A stretch of 64,000 nt of DNA from Candidatus Saccharimonadota bacterium (GTDB taxonomy: Bacteria; Patescibacteriota; Saccharimonadia; Saccharimonadales; Saccharimonadaceae), in the NCBI GenBank assembly GCA_017404935.1, contig JAFRBI010000006.1:32379-96378 (forward strand), given 5' to 3'. The notes beneath the pieces were generated by a model. That model worked only from the letters and a program-made list of their open reading frames with translations, was not told the DNA's origin and did not search any database. Positions 2,488 through 54,878 of the stretch are shown here, in pieces (position 1 is the first letter of the stretch; each line of letters starts with the position of its first letter). The position numbers and the translations under genes were made by a program.

Positions 2488-2562
2488 TGGCTGGGGATGA
2501 GGGATTCGAACCCCCGAATGCTGGGACCAGAACCCAGTGCCTTACCACTTGGCGAATCCCCA
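2488..2562 (-). tRNA. tRNA-Gln (anticodon CTG)
   Basis: Reverse complement TGGGGATTCGCCAAGTGGTAAGGCACTGGGTTCTGGTCCCAGCATTCGGGGGTTCGAATCCCTCATCCCCAGCCA: cloverleaf, TTCGAAT T-loop, encoded CCA. Confidence 0.97.
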
Positions 2563-8751: not shown

Positions 8752-10078
8752 TACTCTCACCCGCAAAGTAGAAAATTTTAAACCAGCTGGTGATACAGTA
8801 AAAATTTATACTTGTGGCCCAACAGTTTATAATTTTCCGCATATTGGTAACTATGCAGCGTATGCTTACTGGGACCTTTTGGTGCGCTGCCTTAAATTAA
8901 ACGGCTACAACGTAAAACGTGTGCTTAATCTTACCGACGTGGGGCACCTTACTTCTGATGCAGATGATGGGGAAGATAAGCTAGAAAAAGGCGCGAGGTT
9001 AGAGGGTAAAACGCCGTTTGAAATTGCTGATTTTTATGCTAAGGTCTATCTCGATAATTACAAGAAGATGGAATTTTTGCCAGCAGATGTGATCGCTAGA
9101 GCTACCGACTATATCCCCGAAGATATGGAAGCGGTAGATTTGATGACTAAAAACGGCTACACTTATGAAACTCGTGACGGTGTGTATTTTGACACCGCTA
9201 AATTCCCAGAATATGCCGATTTTGCTAGGTTAGATTTGGAAGGACTTAAAGCCGGTGCTAGAGTTGGGTTTTCTTCCGAAAAACGTAATGTGTCAGACTT
9301 CGCCGTATGGAAGTTTATTCAGCCAGGTGAAAACCACGCGATGCGTTGGGACTATCTTGGCCGGCCAGGTTATCCAGGCTGGCATCTAGAATGTGCCACG
9401 ATTATTCATAAAGAGCTGGGTGAGTCGATTGATATTCATACTGGCGGGATTGATCATATTCCAATTCATCATACTAATGAAATCGCCGAAACTTACGCTG
9501 CTTACGGCACTAAGTTGTCTAGATTTTGGCTACACTGTGATTTTATTACGATAGATGGTCAAAAAATCTCTAAATCGCTAGGAAACACCTACACTTTGGA
9601 AGATTTAGAATCTCGTGGGTTTTCGCCGATGGATTATAAGATGTGGCTTTTATCTGGGCATTACCAGGGGACGCGAAATTTTACTTTTGAAAGTCTGGAG
9701 GCTGCTAAAAATCGGAGGGCTAACTGGCGCGAGAGAATTGCTCTTTGCTATCAAAAGCCGGTTGAAAGCGATGAAGGGAATTTTGCTAAAGTGTTAGAGG
9801 CCGTTAATAATAATCTTAATTCGGCTGAAGCGTGCGCGATTATTGATAACTGTGCCTTGTCACTTGATGATTGGCGGAAGATAGATGAGCTATTTGGACT
9901 GCGGTTAATTTCTGACACCCCTGATGTGTCTGACGAGGTTTATAATTTGATCCACGAAAGAGATGTGGCGAGAGCTAGCAAAGATTTTGCTATGTCTGAC
10001 AAAATTCGTGATGAACTCTTAAAGCAGGGAATCGCGCTATCAGACACGCCGGATGGGGCGATGTGGTATTATAATTAA
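8738..10078 (+). CDS. cysS: cysteine--tRNA ligase
   Basis: CGPTVY, HIGN, PGWHLEC, GGIDH, KISKSLGN. Confidence 0.97.
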   Translation: MKLYNTLTRKVENFKPAGDTVKIYTCGPTVYNFPHIGNYAAYAYWDLLVRCLKLNGYNVKRVLNLTDVGHLTSDADDGEDKLEKGARLEGKTPFEIADFYAKVYLDNYKKMEFLPADVIARATDYIPEDMEAVDLMTKNGYTYETRDGVYFDTAKFPEYADFARLDLEGLKAGARVGFSSEKRNVSDFAVWKFIQPGENHAMRWDYLGRPGYPGWHLECATIIHKELGESIDIHTGGIDHIPIHHTNEIAETYAAYGTKLSRFWLHCDFITIDGQKISKSLGNTYTLEDLESRGFSPMDYKMWLLSGHYQGTRNFTFESLEAAKNRRANWRERIALCYQKPVESDEGNFAKVLEAVNNNLNSAEACAIIDNCALSLDDWRKIDELFGLRLISDTPDVSDEVYNLIHERDVARASKDFAMSDKIRDELLKQGIALSDTPDGAMWYYN

Positions 10079-11412
10079 ACCTCAAGAAAACAACGGATAA
10101 CTGTCCCCTTTGAACGATACAAATAATTTGAAAAATTCGTAAAATTAATTCCTCTGGTATCCAGTATTGTTACTTCCTGCTGAGCATGAGAAGAGCGAGT
10201 GGAAGAAAATATATATGCGCCAGTCCCAGTTGGGCTATCGGCATAGGCATAGTTTCCAAGGGATAATTTTTGCTGAAAAGTAGGACCGCTATTGCTATAC
10301 GAGGCGTATAAATGATAATATTCTGTACTAGCATTATTTGCTAGAGTCGGTATTCTCCATCCAATTGGGCAAATATCATATGGCGAATCTAGATATGTGT
10401 CTGGGGTATCAACAGCGGCACCAGAAGGATAACAATATGAGCCCGCGGAGGCCGCGCAATAATTATAGAAAACCCCAATCAACCCACTGCCGGCACCGTA
10501 ATTGGCGCTACTTAGAACATTCTTATAACCCGTCCTGATTCTGGGTTCAGTATATTGCTCCGACCAAGTATTATTGACGGCAGAAGTAGCGTATGGACTC
10601 GAACACCCACCATTAATCAAGCATTCCAGTGCTTCGGCGGTAGAATTAGTGTTTGACGGAGAAAGGCTAGCCTGGACATCTGAATCCGTTAAATCCAATC
10701 TCATGTTGTCTAGCATCCAGCAATTTCCATCAGCCAATCTAGCAACCTTATAGACTTCATCATCCCGTATATCTGGCAACTCTACTATATCCTCTATATT
10801 CATAGCAGAGCAGTCGGAGGCAGTAAAAGTTTGCATGTATTTTATCAGTGGGTTAGCCGTAGTAGTAAACACCAGCGTAGTCTTATAAGTTCCAGAAGCT
10901 TGTAGATAGTCTATTTTGGAGGCAAAGGATAGTGTAGTAGTATCATCATTGGCATAGGTATCACTTTCTAGAATGGTAGTATTAGTAGCAAATGGTATAT
11001 AGCTTCCTGAATCCTTCTTGTAACCCCAATGGTTAGCTGGGAAGTCTGATGGTGAAGAATAGCTTCCAGAAGCTAGGGTTGGAATAGTTAGAGTATTGTC
11101 TGTAGTTTCTACTAAGTCTGTATCTCCACTCTGACTAGTTATAATAGTTTTATAGCCAGTAGCGTTATTAGTTCCTACTGTAATAGTAAGGTTATTACTT
11201 CCAGAGTCAGTGGATGATGGATCTAGATTAAGTACTAATGGAGTTGATGGGATAGTGACAGTAAGGCTTGGTTCTATACTGACGTCTGTGGTGATATTCT
11301 CAGATGCGGTTGCGGAATTACTAAAAAACATTAGAAAAATACCTAAAATTGCTACTATATATAATATATAGTGCGATTTTGTTCGGTTTTTTATGGCTTG
11401 TATGACGTTCAT
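10075..11412 (-). CDS. secreted/surface protein with one FISUMP (Fib_succ_major)-like domain
   Basis: N-terminal hydrophobic signal; D.RD..Y.V.RLADGNCWMLDN, YNYCAASAG, ICPIGWRIPT, C-terminal IRC; GAGGT RBS before ATG 11412. Confidence 0.75.
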   Translation of the reverse strand: MNVIQAIKNRTKSHYILYIVAILGIFLMFFSNSATASENITTDVSIEPSLTVTIPSTPLVLNLDPSSTDSGSNNLTITVGTNNATGYKTIITSQSGDTDLVETTDNTLTIPTLASGSYSSPSDFPANHWGYKKDSGSYIPFATNTTILESDTYANDDTTTLSFASKIDYLQASGTYKTTLVFTTTANPLIKYMQTFTASDCSAMNIEDIVELPDIRDDEVYKVARLADGNCWMLDNMRLDLTDSDVQASLSPSNTNSTAEALECLINGGCSSPYATSAVNNTWSEQYTEPRIRTGYKNVLSSANYGAGSGLIGVFYNYCAASAGSYCYPSGAAVDTPDTYLDSPYDICPIGWRIPTLANNASTEYYHLYASYSNSGPTFQQKLSLGNYAYADSPTGTGAYIFSSTRSSHAQQEVTILDTRGINFTNFSNYLYRSKGTVIRCFLEV

Positions 11413-11447
11413 TTGGTACCTCACTTTATTAACCTTCGGCACCAAGT

Positions 11448-11583
11448 AAAAATCGACACCGTAGGCTTCGACAACCAAACACACTTAGTAGCATAACGCT
11501 CAAAGGCATTCAGTACCTAACGGTGCCGATTTTTGCCTTCGAGAATTATATTCCTAAACAAAAATGTGCGTTTGATTGTCGAA
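11448..11583 (-). promoter_or_regulatory. structured 5' leader, copy 1 (stem AAAAATCGGCACCG/CGGTGTCGATTTTT plus upstream antisense box)
   Basis: Inverted repeats read directly; same architecture at 54718-54878. Confidence 0.7.
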
Positions 11584-11704
11584 TTTATATAGTTCTATTA
11601 TACCATACTTTTTATGTTTCAAGTATTTTTTTGATATTGTATTGTATTTTTCTATCATCTGTGATATAATAAAAGTATATCGGGATTTTCCCGCCCTACT
11701 CCGG

Positions 11705-12139
11705 CTAAACACCGGAGGAATTTTTTTCTCTCAAATCAAAATACTCGGCAAAAGCATTTTTGATTTTTGACACGTCCATATCATCGGCTTCGCCCTTCTT
11801 ACGTAGTAGCCTAAAAACACTTGTGGCTCTAATCTGCGACAAGACTGCATATATTTCTTTATCCTTAAAATTAAACTTCACATATCCATGACCTTCGTGC
11901 GCTTGTGTTGTAAGGGGAATTCCGGTAAAATTCAATCTTCCATCTTTCTTGAAAATATATACTGGCCTTAAAAACAATTCTCCTTTTCCGTTAATTTCCG
12001 TGCCCACGTTTTCGCCCCAAATACACCACCAAATTTGTCCTTCACTAAAAGTCCTATACCTCCCAGCGTTATGAGTGTCCGCTTTTATCGGCATCCATTC
12101 CTTGTAATCTCGTTTTTCTAAAAAATCATCTTTTCCCAC
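11705..12139 (-). CDS. PemK/MazF-family toxin-like protein
   Basis: GQIWWCIWGENVGTEINGK..RPVYIFKK...GIPLTT pattern; AAGGAG RBS before GTG 12139. Confidence 0.8.
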   Translation of the reverse strand: MGKDDFLEKRDYKEWMPIKADTHNAGRYRTFSEGQIWWCIWGENVGTEINGKGELFLRPVYIFKKDGRLNFTGIPLTTQAHEGHGYVKFNFKDKEIYAVLSQIRATSVFRLLRKKGEADDMDVSKIKNAFAEYFDLREKNSSGV

Positions 12140-12275
12140 AAAATTCTCCTTTTTATTAAGTGCTGCACTCCACCCTAGCATACTGGGGTAGAAAAATCAA
12201 CCCTCCACCTGGAATTTTGTTGACATAAGAGAAATGACCTCTGAAAAATTTAGATCAATGGTATTGCTTAATTTT

Positions 12276-35740: not shown

Positions 35741-37667
35741 CTATTTGGCGATGCAACGGATTTGACAGCCGTCATAACTTTGGGCGCTGCCGTATCTCAA
35801 ACTAGTGCCACTTGGATTATACAGAACTCCTCTATAACTAGTGCTCAAAGTTGAGGCCCACCAATATGCCCCATCGTTAATTAGCGCTCCTCCGCGATAG
35901 TATCCATTGCCACCGTTCTGGATGAAGTTACTGCCATAGGAGGTTACTTGGTTTATCTCTGTCTGGCTCGCAAGGCGCCAACCAGATGGACAGATATCGC
36001 TTACTGATACAGTCGTGTTGTCGCCGATAGTGCCTGCAGAAGTTGCTCGGAAATTATACCACGCACCATAAGTAGATGAACATTCTATCCTCGGATCATC
36101 TGTACTATTTCCAAGCGTAAGATTATTAGTTGGAGTAGACCAGCTGGCGGTAGAGATGTTGGAATCGGAACTGGTGAGAGTTTTGCTGGTAATAGTAGAG
36201 CCGTAGGCGGAGCCGGTACCGTTACAACCAATGGCGAGGTTTCTGGTCATCCAGACGTTGCCGTTAATTTTGGCAATGGTGTAGTCTTGGCCGTCGCGAG
36301 AATCTTTCAATGTGGCGGTGTCACCATCGTTCATTTTGGCGGCAATCTGCGGACTTATTTCCTGCATGGTGGTGATGTCGGAAATGGTGCGAGGGTCATT
36401 AAGGATGCAGCGAATAGAGGTGCCGGATCCCCTACCAATATAATTATCAGGATAGACAGTCCCATTGGGAGATAAATATAACCCGCCCCAAACGGTGGTA
36501 GCAGCCGTGTTTTCAGAGCTCCAATAAAAACCGTATGTCCCTGAATTAGTTATTGATGTCCCGCTTGGAGAATAGCCTGGTCTAGCAAAGGCTGCGCCAC
36601 CATTCGCAATAGGCTTTGTCATATTAGTGTATGAATTATATTGATTATAAAGTCTAGTATACTCACTGGAAGTGCCTACACTCGTAGGTAATCTCCACCC
36701 AGCTGGGCAAATATCATCTGTAGCTTTTGCGGTAGTAGAACCACATCTTGTGCTACCTGATGCCGCACAAAAATTATAGAGAACACCGTTCGGCGTCTGT
36801 GAAACTGAATCTATGCCAGAAACTACCACATATCTTTCTTCGCCTGATCCACTACCGTTTTTCCAGCTATTAAAACTGGAGGCGGAGATAGGGGTGGAAA
36901 GATTGGTATTATTAGATGTAAGATCTGTGGCAAGTTCTACTGCGCCGAGATTGAGATTCGTCATCATCCAACAGTTACCATCGGCAAGGCGTTGGATGAT
37001 ATATTCTTGGTTGTCCCTTTTATCTATTACTGTCATTGGTGTAGTGGTGCAAAGAGCTGGGTCTAGGTCTTGCATGTAGTTTACTAGCGGATTCGCCACA
37101 ATATTAAACTGAAGAGTAGTATTATAGGCTCCAGCTGGTTGGAGATAGTCTATTTTGGAAGCAAAGCTAAGTTCTGCTTGGTCTTGGTTTACGGCAGTAT
37201 CTCTTTCCATCAAAGTGTTACCAGAATCAAATGGAACAAAGCCAGTTGTAACGGTTGATGGTATTGCTGTATTTGAATTAATACTATACCCCCATTTATT
37301 AGCAGTAAAGGTAGATTCTGTATAAGTGCCAGTATCAAGAGTTGGAATGGTAGCAGAAATAGCAGTAGTATCACTAGTAGTATCTCTTTCTAGGTCTGTA
37401 TTATCATTTGGAGTAGACAGAGTTAGTTTGTAGCCAGTCTTATTATTAGTACCTACACTTACATTTAGGTTTTTAGAATCAAAAATTTTAGATGATGGGT
37501 CTAGATTTAAAACTAGGGAGCTAGTAGGAATAGTGAGAGTAAGGCTTGGTTCTATGGTGACAGAATAATCTACATCAACTGCGGTTGCACCCCCCCCCCA
37601 TTAATAGGGCGAAGGGTACGTAAAAGAATAAGTTTTTCCAAGAATTATTACGCACAACCTTAAACAT
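35741..37667 (-). pseudogene. two-domain FISUMP-like surface protein, frameshifted at a G10 tract in the signal-peptide region
   Basis: ATG 37667 (MFKVVRNNSWKNLFFYVPFALLMGGG) reads out of frame at C10 37590-37599; the downstream frame GATAVDVDYSVTIEPSL... is open to 35741 and homologous to the other two paralogs. Confidence 0.8.
37590..37599 (-). repeat. G10 homopolymer (candidate slipped-strand switch)
   Basis: C x10 on the + strand; 9 or 12 G restores the frame. Confidence 0.8.
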
Positions 37668-37717
37668 AACCTTATTATAACACAAAAAATAAAAATGCAA
37701 GACTTTTTTAAAAAGTC

Positions 37718-37746
37718 TTGTAATTTTTAAAAATCTGCGCTATAAT
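37718..37746 (+). promoter_or_regulatory. sigma70-type promoter of secE-nusG
   Basis: TTGTAA-17 bp-TATAAT. Confidence 0.75.
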
Positions 37747-37801
37747 ATTGACAAGTCTGGTATCAGACTTTTTTTAAGCAATATTATTAGTAAAGGAGTT
37801 T

Positions 37802-41027: not shown

Positions 41028-41049
41028 ACTGTGCTATAATTAGGGAAGT

Positions 41050-41100
41050 TACCAAAGACAGTGGCGGCGAAAGCTTAATCATGCCACCGAGGAATTATTC
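41050..41100 (+). promoter_or_regulatory. L10 leader (rplJ autoregulatory RNA)
   Basis: AAGACAGTGGC...GCTTAAT...GCCACCGAGG matches the L10-leader pattern; directly upstream of rplJ. Confidence 0.8.
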
Positions 41101-41178
41101 TTATAATAGAGTTTTGGTGACGATGTTTAACAACTAGCTAACTTTATTATTACAAATTATTAACCAAAGGAACTTTTT

Positions 41179-47580: not shown

Positions 47581-49035
47581 GTGAAGAAAATAACTATTTC
47601 TAAGCTTTTTCTATACCGACACAGATTTGTAATTGGGTATATAGTTTTGATGGCAGCGTTTGTAGCGTTACTCTTTACTTTGCCTCTAATTGCACAAGAT
47701 GGGCTTTCTGATGCCGAGATGGAATCGGCCACTTCTTCTTACCATTTGTCGATTTCCGAGGCTTTTGATGGAAGCTTAGTAGATCTTCCGTATCATTTTT
47801 TGCAAAAAGTTTCGATTAAATTTCTGGGGCTAACGCCATATTCTATTAAACTTCCTAGTATAATCATCGGGCTTTTGCTTGGTATTCTTTTGATTTTGCT
47901 TTTGAACCGCTGGTTTAAAAATAATGTGTCGCTACTTTCTTCGTGTCTGGTGGTTCTTTCGACGCCGTTTTTGTTTTTGGCGGGGTCTGGCACACCTCTT
48001 ATTATGTTAGTATTTTGGCCAACACTACTTCTTTGGCTCGGCTCGAAAATTCAGGGCGAAAAAAGACCAAAACCGATGTACTCATTTTTGTTTTCAATTG
48101 CGATGGTGATGGCGCTATTTACACCGTATATGATATATTTTGCGGTGTTTTGCATGTTCTTTGTATTAATTCAGCCACATCTTCGGTTTGTACTCCGAAG
48201 TTTACCGAAACTTCCATTGATGTTGACTGGAATAATTATTTTGGCCGGCTTTGCAGCGCTCGCTATTAATATCATCAACCAGCCTTCGGTAATTATGGAA
48301 CTTATTGCCGTAAAAGATTTTGATATTCATAACTTTATTCCTAATATTGTAAGTGGCTTTACGCCGGTATTTCAATGGTTTGGTGAGTCCAACACAATAT
48401 TCTTGGCACCTCTTATTGGACTTCCGGTTTTGGCATTGGCTCTTACTGGGCTATTTTCTACCACCAAAGGTTTCTTTGCATCCAGAAATTCCATTGCTTC
48501 GCTTTTGATTGTATTTTGTATTGCTATTACCGGCTTAAATCCAAATGCTGTAGTATTTCTAATTTTGCCACTTTCTATTTTGGTGGCACATGGACTCAAA
48601 TATCTGCTAGAAAAATGGTATGGGCTATTTCCAGAAAACCCGTATGCTCGATTGTCAGCATTGGTGCCACTTACGATTTTGTTTGGCATTGTAATTTTGC
48701 CAGGACTACTTCAATATATTTATGGGTATCATTATAATTCTAAGGTAGCTTCAAAATTTGATTATGGGCTTAACATTATTCATCAAAATCTAGCTGATGA
48801 AACTATCGTGGCAGAAAAGAATTACGATTTTTATAAAATTTTGGAAGATTCTACCAAATTAAAAGTAGTGCCCACAGTGGAAGAAACTGATGCAGATGGT
48901 GTGGCAGTGCTTCACGGGCGCACAAATAAAGAAAATTATCATTTATCACGCATAATTACCTCGCCGATGAGCGAAAACTCTGATATAATATATCTATATA
49001 CGAAAAAAGGAGAGCAGAATGGGACAGACATTTGA
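47581..49035 (+). CDS. multi-pass membrane protein, ArnT/PMT (GT-C) glycosyltransferase-like
   Basis: About 11 TM segments; DLPY..., SIKLPSIIIG pattern; periplasmic C-domain. Confidence 0.55.
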   Translation: MKKITISKLFLYRHRFVIGYIVLMAAFVALLFTLPLIAQDGLSDAEMESATSSYHLSISEAFDGSLVDLPYHFLQKVSIKFLGLTPYSIKLPSIIIGLLLGILLILLLNRWFKNNVSLLSSCLVVLSTPFLFLAGSGTPLIMLVFWPTLLLWLGSKIQGEKRPKPMYSFLFSIAMVMALFTPYMIYFAVFCMFFVLIQPHLRFVLRSLPKLPLMLTGIIILAGFAALAINIINQPSVIMELIAVKDFDIHNFIPNIVSGFTPVFQWFGESNTIFLAPLIGLPVLALALTGLFSTTKGFFASRNSIASLLIVFCIAITGLNPNAVVFLILPLSILVAHGLKYLLEKWYGLFPENPYARLSALVPLTILFGIVILPGLLQYIYGYHYNSKVASKFDYGLNIIHQNLADETIVAEKNYDFYKILEDSTKLKVVPTVEETDADGVAVLHGRTNKENYHLSRIITSPMSENSDIIYLYTKKGEQNGTDI

Positions 49036-51771: not shown

Positions 51772-52596
51772 TTATTCAGGTAGGGCCAACTGTATTTTTG
51801 AGAGTGCCGAAAGTTGCTTACTCACCATTTCACGAAGTAATAATAAACGTTCGGGCTGAGATTTATTCTGACTAATTAAAATTGCGTTGTAGCTTTCTAG
51901 ATTTGCCAAAACCAATAATTGATCTATGGTAGCTTCGTCACGGATATTACCTTTTTTCCTTTTATTTTCGGTGCGCCACTCGCTAGCAGTTTTGCCAAAT
52001 AGAGCTACATTTAGTAAATCTGCTTCTTCTGCATATGTAAAATGAATTTGTCTTGGGGTTAGCTCTGGTGGAATTAAATTATTTTTAATCGCATCGGTAT
52101 GAATTCTATAATTGATTTTGCTAAGTTCGCGATTAAGGTTCCAGTTTAGAGATAATTTTGAGTTTTCGTCTGATTTGATACGTTGGTAGTCTTTTATGAT
52201 ATATAATTTAAACTCTGCCGAAATCCAAGATGCAAATTCAAAGGCGATATCGGAATGGGCGTAGGTGCCACCATAGCGACCAGATTTGGCTACAATACCA
52301 ACAGCATTAACCGTATTTATCCATTTTTGCGGAGACATCGAAAATGCATTGTATCCAGCTTCATTTCTAAACCCTTCAAATTCGACGGGTTTAAAATTTG
52401 GGTTATGCAATTCTTCCCATAAGCCAAGAAAAGTGATGGTTTCTTTTGACTTCATCCAAGTGCGAATAGCGTCATTCGGGTCGTCGCTTTTATATTTCGC
52501 AATATCCGTGAGCGAAATAAATTCGTTCTCAAAATCGTTGGTATAGATGCCAATTTTTAGTCCTTTGGCGTGAATAGTTTCTTGAACCTTTATCAT
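51772..52596 (-). CDS. KilA-N domain DNA-binding protein
   Basis: ISLTDIAK, GRYGGTYAHSDIAFEFASWIS. Confidence 0.88.
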   Translation of the reverse strand: MIKVQETIHAKGLKIGIYTNDFENEFISLTDIAKYKSDDPNDAIRTWMKSKETITFLGLWEELHNPNFKPVEFEGFRNEAGYNAFSMSPQKWINTVNAVGIVAKSGRYGGTYAHSDIAFEFASWISAEFKLYIIKDYQRIKSDENSKLSLNWNLNRELSKINYRIHTDAIKNNLIPPELTPRQIHFTYAEEADLLNVALFGKTASEWRTENKRKKGNIRDEATIDQLLVLANLESYNAILISQNKSQPERLLLLREMVSKQLSALSKIQLALPE

Positions 52597-52742: not shown

Positions 52743-54680
52743 TTATCTGGCGATACAGCGAACCACAAAACCATTTCTCCTAGCAAAATCACCGCGCTTG
52801 GGGTCTATAGTATTTCCGTCAGAACCTTGTATAATCAACCCGCGCATATTTGCACCAGTCGAATAAGTAGACCCCCAGTATGTTCCATCGACATTCTGAT
52901 AGACAAAACCGTTATTCCGAATAGACCCAGAGAATATACCAGAAAATGCGGTCTTAAAATCTACTTTAGTAGCATACGCTTCATAAAGAGTTTCGTATTC
53001 GCCCGATGAACCACTAGTAGGCATTCTCCAACCAGATGGACAAACATCATATAATGCATTACCGACGCCGGACCCTTCCGGCATGCAATACGTGCCAGCA
53101 GAAGCAGCACAATAATTAAAATAAGTTCCCATTTTATTACTGCCGATGCCCCAAGTAGTGTCAACAACAGTATTAGCATAAGTAGTATTAATTAATGGTG
53201 TAGTGAATGTCGTGAAACCAGTATTTGTCGAGGCTGGGAGTACAAAAGTGGTTGATGGTGACATATTAGTATTCGTGGTAGATAAACTTTGGGTTAAAGC
53301 TATAGCGCCAAGACGAAGATTGTCTAGCATCCATATTTTGCCATCTGCAAGTTTTGCCACCTTGTAGGTTTGCCCATCGCGAACATCCACTAGATCAGCA
53401 GTGGCACCAATTGCGGTATTTCTGGTCATAGCTGGCGTGACATCTTGTAAATTGGTGGCGTCGGCAATAGTCTGAGTATCTAGAATACAGCGAATATAAA
53501 AACCATGACCTGGAACATCTTCTTGGACTCTTAATGTATTTGAATCAATATTATATATTAAACGATACCTCCAGCCTATGTGTTCTGTGCTTGAGGTTAA
53601 TGTAGAAGACCAGAAATAACCATTGCTAGAATATGATAATGCGCCACCAAAATATCCTCCACCTGCATTTGGCGAATATTGATCCACATAGCTGAGTACG
53701 CCCATTTGTTCTGAATAAGTTGGTAGTCGCCAACCTGAAGGGCAAATACTATATTTAGCTTCACTTGTGACCCCACTAGTAATGGTACCGGCAGAAGCTG
53801 CAACATAGTTATACCACGCCGTAGGGTTATTATTGTTGTCTACGCCAATATGCATTTGTCCTTTTACGTATGACGCAGTATTTCCATCTAATTCTTCCCA
53901 TTCTCCAGTACCATTGATTAAGTACGGATTAGCATCAGTATATTGCGCAGCTACGTTGGAAGTAGCGGAAGATAGTTCTGTGCCTGTAAATCTAAGGTTT
54001 TCTATCATCCAGCAATTGCCATCAGCGAGCCTTCTTACTTTGTATGGTATTCCATCTCTTTGGTCTGCAATTACCATCGGGGTTTCGGTACATTCTGATG
54101 GGTTCATAGTTTGCATATAATTGGTAGAAACTACCGGCACAATAGAAAAGTTTAATGCTATCTCATATGTCCCAGCAGATTGTAAATAATCTATTTTGGC
54201 AGCTAATGTCATATTAGTGGTCTTTTCAGTTGGGCCAGTAGAAGAAGATACTACATTGCCAGAAGCAAATGGTAAGTAATTACCACTATCTAGTTTATAG
54301 CCCCAATAGTTTGCCGGGAAATTAGCATCTGTGTAGCCAGAGCTAGTAAGAGTAGGAATGGTATAGGTAGAATCATCTGTATTAACAAGTTCTGTCCCGG
54401 TAGCATTTACAAACACTTGATAACCAGACTCATTATTGGTGCCCACGGTAATAGGAATAGTTTTAGTGTCAAAAGGTTTAGAAGCCGGGTTTAGGCTCAT
54501 AGAAATACTGGAAATTGGAATTGTAAAAGTGAGTGATGGACGGACACGAACATTAGTTTGCATATTATCTGCAAAAGCAGAGTCGCCAGAAAATGACAGA
54601 AAAATACCTAGAACTAATACTATATATAATATATAGTGACTTTTCGTTCGGTTTTTTAGAGCTTGTATGGTCCTGTGCAT
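52743..54680 (-). CDS. secreted/surface protein with two FISUMP-like domains
   Basis: Signal region; two D.RDG..Y.V..LADG..WM..NL ... CPSGWR.PT ... RC repeats. Confidence 0.78.
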   Translation of the reverse strand: MHRTIQALKNRTKSHYILYIVLVLGIFLSFSGDSAFADNMQTNVRVRPSLTFTIPISSISMSLNPASKPFDTKTIPITVGTNNESGYQVFVNATGTELVNTDDSTYTIPTLTSSGYTDANFPANYWGYKLDSGNYLPFASGNVVSSSTGPTEKTTNMTLAAKIDYLQSAGTYEIALNFSIVPVVSTNYMQTMNPSECTETPMVIADQRDGIPYKVRRLADGNCWMIENLRFTGTELSSATSNVAAQYTDANPYLINGTGEWEELDGNTASYVKGQMHIGVDNNNNPTAWYNYVAASAGTITSGVTSEAKYSICPSGWRLPTYSEQMGVLSYVDQYSPNAGGGYFGGALSYSSNGYFWSSTLTSSTEHIGWRYRLIYNIDSNTLRVQEDVPGHGFYIRCILDTQTIADATNLQDVTPAMTRNTAIGATADLVDVRDGQTYKVAKLADGKIWMLDNLRLGAIALTQSLSTTNTNMSPSTTFVLPASTNTGFTTFTTPLINTTYANTVVDTTWGIGSNKMGTYFNYCAASAGTYCMPEGSGVGNALYDVCPSGWRMPTSGSSGEYETLYEAYATKVDFKTAFSGIFSGSIRNNGFVYQNVDGTYWGSTYSTGANMRGLIIQGSDGNTIDPKRGDFARRNGFVVRCIAR

Positions 54681-54717
54681 TTTTACCTCGCTTCTATTAA
54701 CCCTATGGGGCTGAAAT

Positions 54718-54878
54718 AAAAATCAGCACCGTAGGCTGCTACCGTCCTATCTGAACGCACTCCAGAGAGTTTAAACGCCAAATCAGACTACCTGCGGTGC
54801 TGATTTTTACGTTCAAACTCAATTGGTTTATTTAAGGCACAATATGTTTTTTGACATATTACAAATAGAACGGTAGCA
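54718..54878 (-). promoter_or_regulatory. structured 5' leader, copy 2 (stem AAAAATCAGCACCG/CGGTGCTGATTTTT plus upstream antisense box)
   Basis: Same architecture as 11448-11583. Confidence 0.7.

Follow-up and report, generated by a model that had tools for sequence, protein, structure and literature searches.

A conserved, uncatalogued leader RNA upstream of genes for secreted surface-protein paralogs in Saccharibacteria, possibly of the attenuator type

Two genes for secreted proteins in a Saccharibacteria genome are separated from their promoters by a stretch of mutually complementary boxes, and the question arises what kind of element this stretch constitutes. The window analysed here comprises 64,000 nucleotides (nt) of assembly GCA_017404935.1 (contig JAFRBI010000006.1, positions 32,379 to 96,378) and belongs to a genome of Candidatus Nanosyncoccus (Saccharibacteria; 740 kb in 11 contigs, 40% G+C), a placement based on CysS relatives from ruminant gut. 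The two copies of the element are situated on its minus strand at 11448-11583 (copy 1) and 54718-54878 (copy 2). An earlier inspection of the letters alone (hereafter the original prediction) had proposed an undescribed conserved leader RNA upstream of Fib_succ_major (FISUMP) paralogs and had suggested a covariance search and a comparison with Rfam as a check. This central claim is borne out: covariance models find many further copies, and no Rfam family matches. The copies form a family of leader RNAs with a common architecture, under selection for sense-strand pairing in all helices, with covariation between a conserved tip (T) and a conserved tail (T'), and linked to genes for secreted proteins.

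The original prediction knew of two copies; both are genuine, but the total in their own genome is 11. Ten of these were detected by covariance models (R1, built from four own-genome copies, and R2, built from 27 diverse copies) and one by eye at C3:~48040-48192, whereas a pattern search of the same genome had returned four; the combined arm pattern did not occur at all in shuffled sequence. A search of 61 genomes belonging to the genus with R1 gave copies in 15, and R2 yielded 170 copies in 16 related genomes, with up to 33 in a single genome. Under laxer filters the leader is present in half of the genus (20 of 40 genomes), and in an order-wide sample of 301 genomes, to which stricter filters were applied, matches were confined to the own genus and one further genus of its family. 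Rfam 15, searched over the window at gathering thresholds, gave no match for the leader; the sole catalogued RNAs in the window are an L10 ribosomal protein leader (41034-41157, plus strand) and one tRNA (2491-2562, minus strand). When copy 1 and 11 related loci were scanned permissively against Rfam, all that appeared were chance matches far below threshold, and the literature searched contained no description of the leader RNA.

Concerning the architecture, 130 copies were fetched; the sequence logo comprises 97 copies, the tip/tail alignment 100 and the motif count 101. The promoter logo reads yrTGnTAYAAT, with TG, TA, A and T invariant, and continues beyond the -10 element as TGnTAYAAT-RAAAR-TGC. 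The G situated 7 nt past the -10 element is paired to the final C of the 3' arm, such that the predicted 5' end of the transcript is flush with the helix. The hairpin domain that begins here is about 130 nt long, and the whole RNA, up to and including the U-tract, measures 148 nt in the median. At its base lies helix P1 (boxes a' and a; median 18 bp, ungapped), followed by a middle helix and by the inner helix P3 (b' and b) of 11-14 bp; basal and inner arms are of equal length on average (18.4 vs. 18.7 nt). The 5' arm, with a median of 65 nt, exceeds the 3' arm (37 +/- 3 nt) by around 28 nt, and this extra stretch usually forms a side hairpin whose U-rich loop holds the motif R-UUUU(U)-AUA. 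The U-run motif is found about 32 nt from the start in 91 of the 101 copies, compared with 12 of 101 in the 3' arm. The tip T (in copy 1 AAAAATCGGCACCGTTAGGTA) is an apical hairpin composed of an A-rich part, UGGCACC, a GNRA tetraloop (GUAA, GUGA or GCAA in about 90%) and GGU, giving the consensus AAAA-UGGCACC-GNRA-GGU. The tail T' (consensus ACCC-UUGC-GGUGCC-A) passes into UUUUU and, together with this tract (GCCTACGGTGYCGATTTTT), is situated directly 3' of the long hairpin.

The helices are conserved as pairings and not as sequences. In P3, all 11 pairs have changed on both sides and 97% of the cells are paired (27 copies), compared with 33-44% in slid controls, and none of 500 shuffles matched these values. 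Where related basal helices differ, pairing is preserved in 1916 of 2067 cases, in comparisons that are not independent of each other. The strand on which this selection acts is indicated by a mismatch test on the 130 copies, in which each 5' arm was aligned to the reverse complement of its own 3' arm under a strand-symmetric score. Isolated mismatches flanked by Watson-Crick pairs were G.U on the sense strand in 153 cases and A.C in 11 (p = 4e-33), the split being 110 vs. 3 in the basal helix and 43 vs. 8 in the inner helices. Since a DNA palindrome or an RNA from the opposite strand would give parity or the reverse, the excess of G.U argues for selection on pairing of the sense-strand RNA. 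The sense folds of the two window copies reach -53.8 kcal/mol (copy 1, z = -7.6) and -58.3 kcal/mol (copy 2, z = -6.3), equalled by none of 200 shuffles, and the antisense fold of copy 1 is, at -40.6 kcal/mol, 13 kcal/mol weaker than its sense fold.

The a'/a sequences of copies 1 and 2 are unrelated to each other, and from this locus specificity the original prediction had derived a gene-specific control of the individual paralogs. This idea found no support. The a'/a and b'/b arms have no further match in their own genome beyond chance AT-rich stretches of 13-17 nt, and the pairing that does look regulatory, T:T', is common to the paralogs. Because all helices vary while remaining paired, the locus-specific boxes are the outcome of a constraint on structure only; they carry structure and no address information.

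Two further features of the 5' strand may be recorded here. The first nine transcribed bases (TGCWAYAAT), which also belong to the 5' strand of P1, are a degenerate repeat of the extended -10 element, 14 nt downstream of it, and could, judged by this likeness, act as a promoter-proximal signal for a sigma-dependent pause or else as a second promoter. The wobble pairs of P1 are strongly oriented, with U on the 5' strand facing G on the 3' strand 100 times and the reverse 10 times, and the 5' strand is nearly free of G, whereas in the inner helices the orientation is symmetric (23 vs. 20). Perhaps the 5' strand of P1 needs to be rich in A and T as the initially transcribed region. A leader peptide, or a leaderless mini-ORF (open reading frame) beginning at RUG near +1, was considered and rejected, as the reading frames proved inconsistent on inspection of the logo.

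Tip and tail are complementary over 17-20 bp, with the A-tract and the U-tract included, and in 10 of the 11 own-genome copies their duplex amounts to -27 to -31 kcal/mol. In the alignment of 100 copies, which was made without fitting to this pairing, 87.8% of the T:T' cells are paired, compared with 35-59% when the partner is slid by 1-3 columns, and 8 pairs change on both sides, compared with 4.0 +/- 0.9 in shuffles; none of 500 shuffles reached the observed values. Where T faces an invariant U it varies only between A and G, and where it faces an invariant G only between C and U; the U-tract itself is invariant in 100 of 100 aligned copies. Compensatory variants of T and T' occur even within the own genome (GGCACC/GGUGCC, GGUACC/GGUACC, GGCGUC/GGCGCC, GAGA/UCUC), and the best-covarying positions are the two loops. 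By its sequence, T:T' is a selected pairing that is built like an intrinsic terminator: a GC-rich helix (core GGCACC/GGUGCC) directly precedes UUUU(U), with an A-tract opposite, but the short loop of about 3-8 nt is lacking, and a simple terminator scanner is silent on the sense strand. As in attenuators, two mutually exclusive pairings share a segment, and the pairings of the hairpin and of T:T' both covary. Since the elements follow one another as a' b' T b a T' and are joined by linkers of 0-5 nt, T:T' crosses both clamp helices, and the RNA can form either the full duplex or the long hairpin but not both at once; with a partial fold-back contact the long hairpin might be compatible.

T' has further potential partners. 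Most copies possess a near-perfect T-like element (T2) 2-64 nt downstream, and the duplex of T' with the downstream sequence averages -21.6 kcal/mol, compared with -12.9 kcal/mol for shuffled sequence; copy 1 of the window has a second T'-like box in place of T2. The T' of most relatives can, moreover, form a hairpin by itself (GCACC/GGUGC, followed by CAUUUUU). As sole terminator, this mini-hairpin was rejected: it is missing from the four copies of the window subfamily, and its 5' half fails to follow the compensatory changes in T. A relay in which T2 would hide the ribosome-binding site (RBS) when T binds T' fits one or two own-genome copies (CCUCAC vs. GUGAGG) and was not adopted. No partner in trans was found for T' among rRNA or other RNAs, the short matches to GGTGCC(R)TTTT elsewhere being coding sequence or unrelated palindromes. 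Within most genomes T' is 83-98% identical, compared with 73% between genomes, and the identity of the arms stays at background. Gene conversion of a homologous block reaching from T' to the signal peptide would produce such a pattern, and so would co-evolution with a shared factor. A coding region outside the window, at C10:53150-53260 of the own genome, contains three perfect palindromes in tandem, one of which (TTTGCGGTGCC-AAAAT-GGCACCGCAAA) has the GGCACC/GGTGCC core known from T and T'.

Both window copies contain, on the minus strand, the complete series of extended -10 promoter, boxes a' and a, tip, tail with U5, RBS and ATG, as had been listed in the original prediction. In copy 1 the promoter (TGGTATAAT, read from the sequence and in agreement with the family logo) is situated at 11605-11597, with a predicted transcription start at about 11590. 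Box a' (TTCGACAATCAAACGCAC, 11583-11566), the 5' strand of P1, pairs with box a (11484-11467), the 3' strand, in 16 of 18 positions by Watson-Crick pairs and in the remaining 2 by G.U. The conserved U-run (R-UUUUU-A motif) of the 5' arm lies at 11560..11564, and b' (11535..11543) pairs with b (11499..11507) to form P3. The tip T (11534-11514), consisting of the A-tract and TCGGCACCGTTAGGTA, is followed at the foot of the hairpin by the tail T' (GCCTACGGTGTCGA) and U5 (together GCCTACGGTGTCGATTTTT, 11466-11448), the 3' strand of the terminator-like helix; the T:T' duplex amounts to -28.2 kcal/mol. A second T'-like box, TTGGTGCCGAAGG, follows at 11445-11433. Its resemblance to the tail and its ability to pair with the tip had been noticed before; besides T, the sequence GGTACC overlapping the RBS is a possible partner. 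The RBS GTGAGGTA (11424-11417, with GAGGT at 11422-11418) and the ATG at 11412 lead into the gene of a 445-amino-acid secreted paralog with a signal peptide and a weak PF09603 match (RBS and gene 10075..11424).

In copy 2 the promoter TGTTATAAT is found at 54901-54893 (predicted start about 54886), box a' at 54878-54862 and box a at 54753-54737, with 15 of 17 Watson-Crick pairs and 2 G.U. The inner helix is formed by b' (54810..54820) and b (54767..54777), the tip (AAAAATCAGCACCGCAGGTA) occupies 54808-54789, and the tail (GCCTACGGTGCTGA) with U5 extends over 54736-54718; here the T:T' duplex amounts to -27.8 kcal/mol. The element T2 (TTCAGCCCCATAGGGT, 54700..54715) is a degenerate T-like third partner of T'. 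RBS (GAGGT, 54689-54685) and ATG (54680) belong to the gene of a 645-amino-acid secreted Fib_succ_major paralog (RBS and gene 52743..54689; PF09603, E = 5e-13). The claimed complementarity of the a'/a boxes within each copy and their difference between copies are hence as described, and the compensatory G-C to A-U change in the tip/tail stem between the two copies is real. What had been taken for a loop of about 50 nt, in contrast, is the 3' strand of a long hairpin (b/b' and a/a') that encloses the conserved tip.

All ten model-detected copies of the own genome precede paralogs with an N-terminal signal peptide or hydrophobic anchor, nine of which share a conserved N-terminal domain (PSLTL...LNLDPSS...GTNNxTGY). 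Five of the downstream proteins match Fib_succ_major (PF09603), two above the Pfam cut-off (copy 2, 5e-13; C5:86586, 2e-10) and three below it (C10, 6e-7; copy 1, 1e-3; C3, 4e-3), and the protein at C5:67674 shows only a faint DUF6273 match. Across genomes, 76 of 91 downstream ORFs possess a strongly hydrophobic N-terminal segment, most of the others being cut by contig ends. In the own genome the ATG follows 21-37 nt past the end of the leader model match, which itself ends 2 nt past the U-tract; this leaves no room for a promoter, such that these genes must be transcribed through the leader. Leaders upstream of a very acidic, non-secreted protein (MDKKDEII...GESSGELDPG...) at G006:C1:94377 and G001:C10:20896, both without T2, are rare exceptions to the link with secreted proteins in two related genomes.

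Two paralogs of the own genome lack the leader (window 37560-37760, minus strand; C3:85150-85300, plus strand). Their ATG is situated six nt after a TGnTATAAT box and is followed by a G10 tract within the signal-peptide codons, such that the surface-protein family has two control designs, a structured leader or a leaderless start with poly-G. Furthermore, for about one third of the copies a contig end lies 26-470 nt away in the direction in which the leader points, and these distances cluster at 26-36 and 116-118 nt (G013, G015, G054, G068 and others; in the own genome C6:22017 and C1:101719). The conserved block from T' to the signal peptide evidently breaks short-read assemblies, such that many contigs end 26-230 nt downstream of a leader, and the copy numbers and gene lengths of the leader family are therefore underestimated in metagenome-assembled genomes.

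How might such a leader act? The original prediction offered an attenuator or an antisense switch. The attenuator-type half of this proposal is plausible; the antisense half is unsupported, the a'/a boxes being the closing helix of a 5'-terminal hairpin. We would give an even chance to the reading that the element is a new cis-acting 5' leader of the attenuator type, combined with protection of the 5' end. The transcription start, the termination at U5, the switching between two states and the stabilisation of the mRNA are what we infer for it from sequence. A strong extended -10 promoter would start transcription at the first nucleotide of the hairpin of around 130 nt, and T:T' would be an intrinsic terminator, with its 5' arm kept at the apex of a clamp hairpin that may have any sequence. 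In the default state, with the long hairpin formed, T would be sequestered and RNA polymerase would read into the gene, after which T2, where present, would capture and lock T'. If T were freed, T:T' together with U5 would halt transcription and leave an RNA of about 150 nt. The flush 5' end within P1 would probably protect the mRNA from 5'-end-dependent decay.

Several points weigh against an attenuator of this kind. According to the folding model, the long hairpin (about -54 kcal/mol) forms before T' and far outweighs T:T' (about -28 kcal/mol, less after loop closure), such that the RNA alone should always read through. No factor that frees T was identified: the antiterminator domain CAT_RBD (PF03123) is absent from the own genome, whereas control genomes gave matches, only one NusG is encoded, and the 5' arms vary too much to be recognised by a sequence-specific binder. 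A terminator made of T:T' would have to span about 37-45 nt between its arms, a distance far beyond canonical loops. T and T' are each self-complementary, and the covariation at loop positions would fit loop-loop kissing as well as a full duplex. Finally, the effect of T' availability on RBS accessibility is weak (0.59 vs. 0.55 in 82 copies, p = 0.025).

A bolder version, possible but to our mind doubtful, would see in the leader a new class of RNA switch specific to Saccharibacteria. One half of its intrinsic terminator would lie at the tip and the other at the foot of a long hairpin with a three-way junction, and a fold-back contact, by a pseudoknot or by kissing loops, would bring them together. 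Opening or locking would fall to a shared factor that reads the invariant T', which would evolve in concert within each genome; the -10-like repeat would provide a sigma-dependent pause for timing. Such a split-terminator switch, if true, would mean that an episymbiont in which hardly any regulators are known co-ordinates or diversifies the expression of dozens of genes for surface proteins.

Other explanations account for part of these observations. The leader might be a static structure without any switch, its flush hairpin shielding the very abundant mRNAs of surface proteins from RNases that depend on the 5' end, or serving as a processing site for RNase III, which the own genome encodes, and T:T' being part of a compact pseudoknot or kissing fold in which the tip bends back to the tail. 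A 5' end that is predicted to be paired from nucleotide 1, stems constrained for pairing alone, the dominance of the long hairpin in the ensemble, the equal lengths of basal and inner arms with a constrained total length, and the position of the most-covarying T:T' pairs in the two loops all agree with it. Stabilisation, however, leaves the invariant U4-5 tract right after T' and the A-tract before T unexplained; the stem parts of T and T' compensate as well (GGCGUC/GGCGCC, GGUACC/GGUACC), which is not shared by the 5' half of T', and T2 competes for T'. We therefore consider a purely static leader rather unlikely. Still less is to be expected from a small-RNA gene of about 150 nt, terminated by T' and U5 and acting in trans through its single-stranded tail or tip on the mRNAs of the paralogs, with the downstream gene expressed by leaky read-through or from separate promoters. 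Promoter, structured RNA and U-tract are the typical build of such genes; the hairpin of T' itself (GCACC...GGUGC, then CAUUUUU) in most relatives, the high within-genome identity of T', the complementarity of T2 on the mRNAs to T', spacers of 220 nt with a second -10 box in some relatives and a few copies without a nearby ORF fit this picture too. In the own genome, though, the genes need the leader promoter, for which the short gap to the ATG leaves no substitute; orientation and distance to the secreted-protein gene are nearly invariant, and the T' present in cis on each mRNA would outcompete a copy in trans, which together make the proposal quite improbable.

The complete divergence of the arms, found even between copies with near-identical flanks and between otherwise orthologous copies, recalls a DNA-level element, either a palindromic insert whose stems are copies of the host sequence next to it or a small invertible switch of the fimS or cwpV type with a'/a as its inverted borders. 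The copies at C3 of the own genome and at G067:C6 share a'/a while their b'/b are unrelated, which hints at wholesale replacement of arms, and a' resembles the adjoining -10 box. The bias of G.U over A.C on the sense strand in both basal and inner helices would, on the other hand, be unexpected for a palindrome or a frequently inverted segment. All copies found have one orientation relative to promoter and gene, although the model demands that orientation; same-strand T'/T' pairs are absent from the own genome, and a single recombinase is hard to reconcile with inverted repeats that differ from locus to locus. The DNA-level reading may account for how the element arose or for the diversification of its arms; as the present function it is contradicted by the strand bias, and we regard it as very improbable. 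Scarcely credible, finally, is the model after phage P4 CI and P1 C4 put forward in the original prediction, in which a box a in a loop would act as antisense RNA against the upstream a' and thus control each paralog separately. It takes up the complementarity and the locus specificity of a'/a, but box a is not in a loop, a and b forming a continuous hairpin with a' and b'; the boxes are clear of the RBS, no targets in trans exist in the own genome, and all helices vary alike, as under a constraint on structure only.

Concerning the genomic surroundings, terminator-like hairpins are found upstream of the copy 1 promoter at 11681-11717 (CGGGAAAATCCCG with a T-run on the minus strand, CTCCGGCTAAACACCGGAG with a T-run on the plus strand), the one of the gene upstream of copy 1 lying at 11693-11681. 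This upstream neighbour encodes a PemK/MazF-like toxin (11705-12181); as hairpins on both strands close it, the promoter of the copy 1 leader constitutes an independent unit. The copy 2 gene is adjoined on its downstream side by a gene for a KilA-N domain protein (51772-52596). Both the KilA-N and the PemK/MazF-like genes are accessory or mobile-type neighbours of the surface-protein genes.

Saccharibacteria, members of the candidate phyla radiation (CPR, Patescibacteria), have tiny genomes with few recognisable regulators, and to our knowledge no cis-regulatory RNAs of their own have been described. Their surface proteins probably mediate the attachment to host bacteria, and an element of about 150 nt that is under strong selection at the RNA level and occupies up to 33 sites in a genome of 800 kb suggests a major layer of control. 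The leader family could mark the surface-protein repertoire in metagenomes and thereby aid annotation, and its conserved tip and tail, its U-tract and its arbitrary stems make it amenable to tests by compensatory mutation.

Among known systems, the immunity RNAs of phages P4 (CI) and P1/P7 (C4) share with the leader complementary boxes within one transcript and a leader that may end at a terminator; here, however, the boxes are the two strands of one stem and lie off the RBS, and neither a processing signal nor an immunity context is found. The lambdoid PR' region (sigma-dependent pause, 6S RNA, tR') is similar in its strong promoter, in a -10-like repeat, situated here at +1 to +9 (TGCWAYAAT), and in a terminator that follows after about 150 nt and precedes genes for surface or structural proteins. 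It differs in that no Q-like protein or site was identified here, the pause is only putative, and the -10-like sequence is at the same time part of P1. Hairpins at the 5' terminus stabilise the mRNAs of ompA in E. coli and of aprE and ermC in B. subtilis, and also occur in leaders of surface-layer (S-layer) genes; likewise, the leader is a stem-loop at or near the mRNA 5' end of an abundant envelope protein and is constrained in structure only, whereas its greater length (around 35 bp in total), conserved tip, complementary tail and U-tract set it apart.

A further pattern for comparison is that of terminator/antiterminator attenuators and riboswitch platforms, as in the trp, pyr and bgl/sac leaders of Gram-positive-type bacteria. 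With the ribonucleic antiterminator (RAT) bound by BglG, SacY and LicT the leader shares a hairpin that is small and conserved (T with its GNRA tetraloop in this case), one strand of which is the 5' arm of the terminator, such that termination would be prevented by whatever binds the hairpin; a CAT_RBD protein is missing from the own genome, the hairpin is embedded in a long clamp, and its sequence is unrelated. With attenuators in general it shares the promoter-proximal position, a segment (T') with alternative partners, and a GC-rich helix with a U-tract just upstream of the RBS. There are also differences: the leader has no leader peptide, recognisable aptamer or known binding protein and no match in Rfam; the 5' arm of its terminator-like helix is situated at the tip of a hairpin of 130 nt, separated by about 37 nt of paired RNA from its partner; and the element is present in up to 33 copies per genome, placed before genes for secreted proteins.

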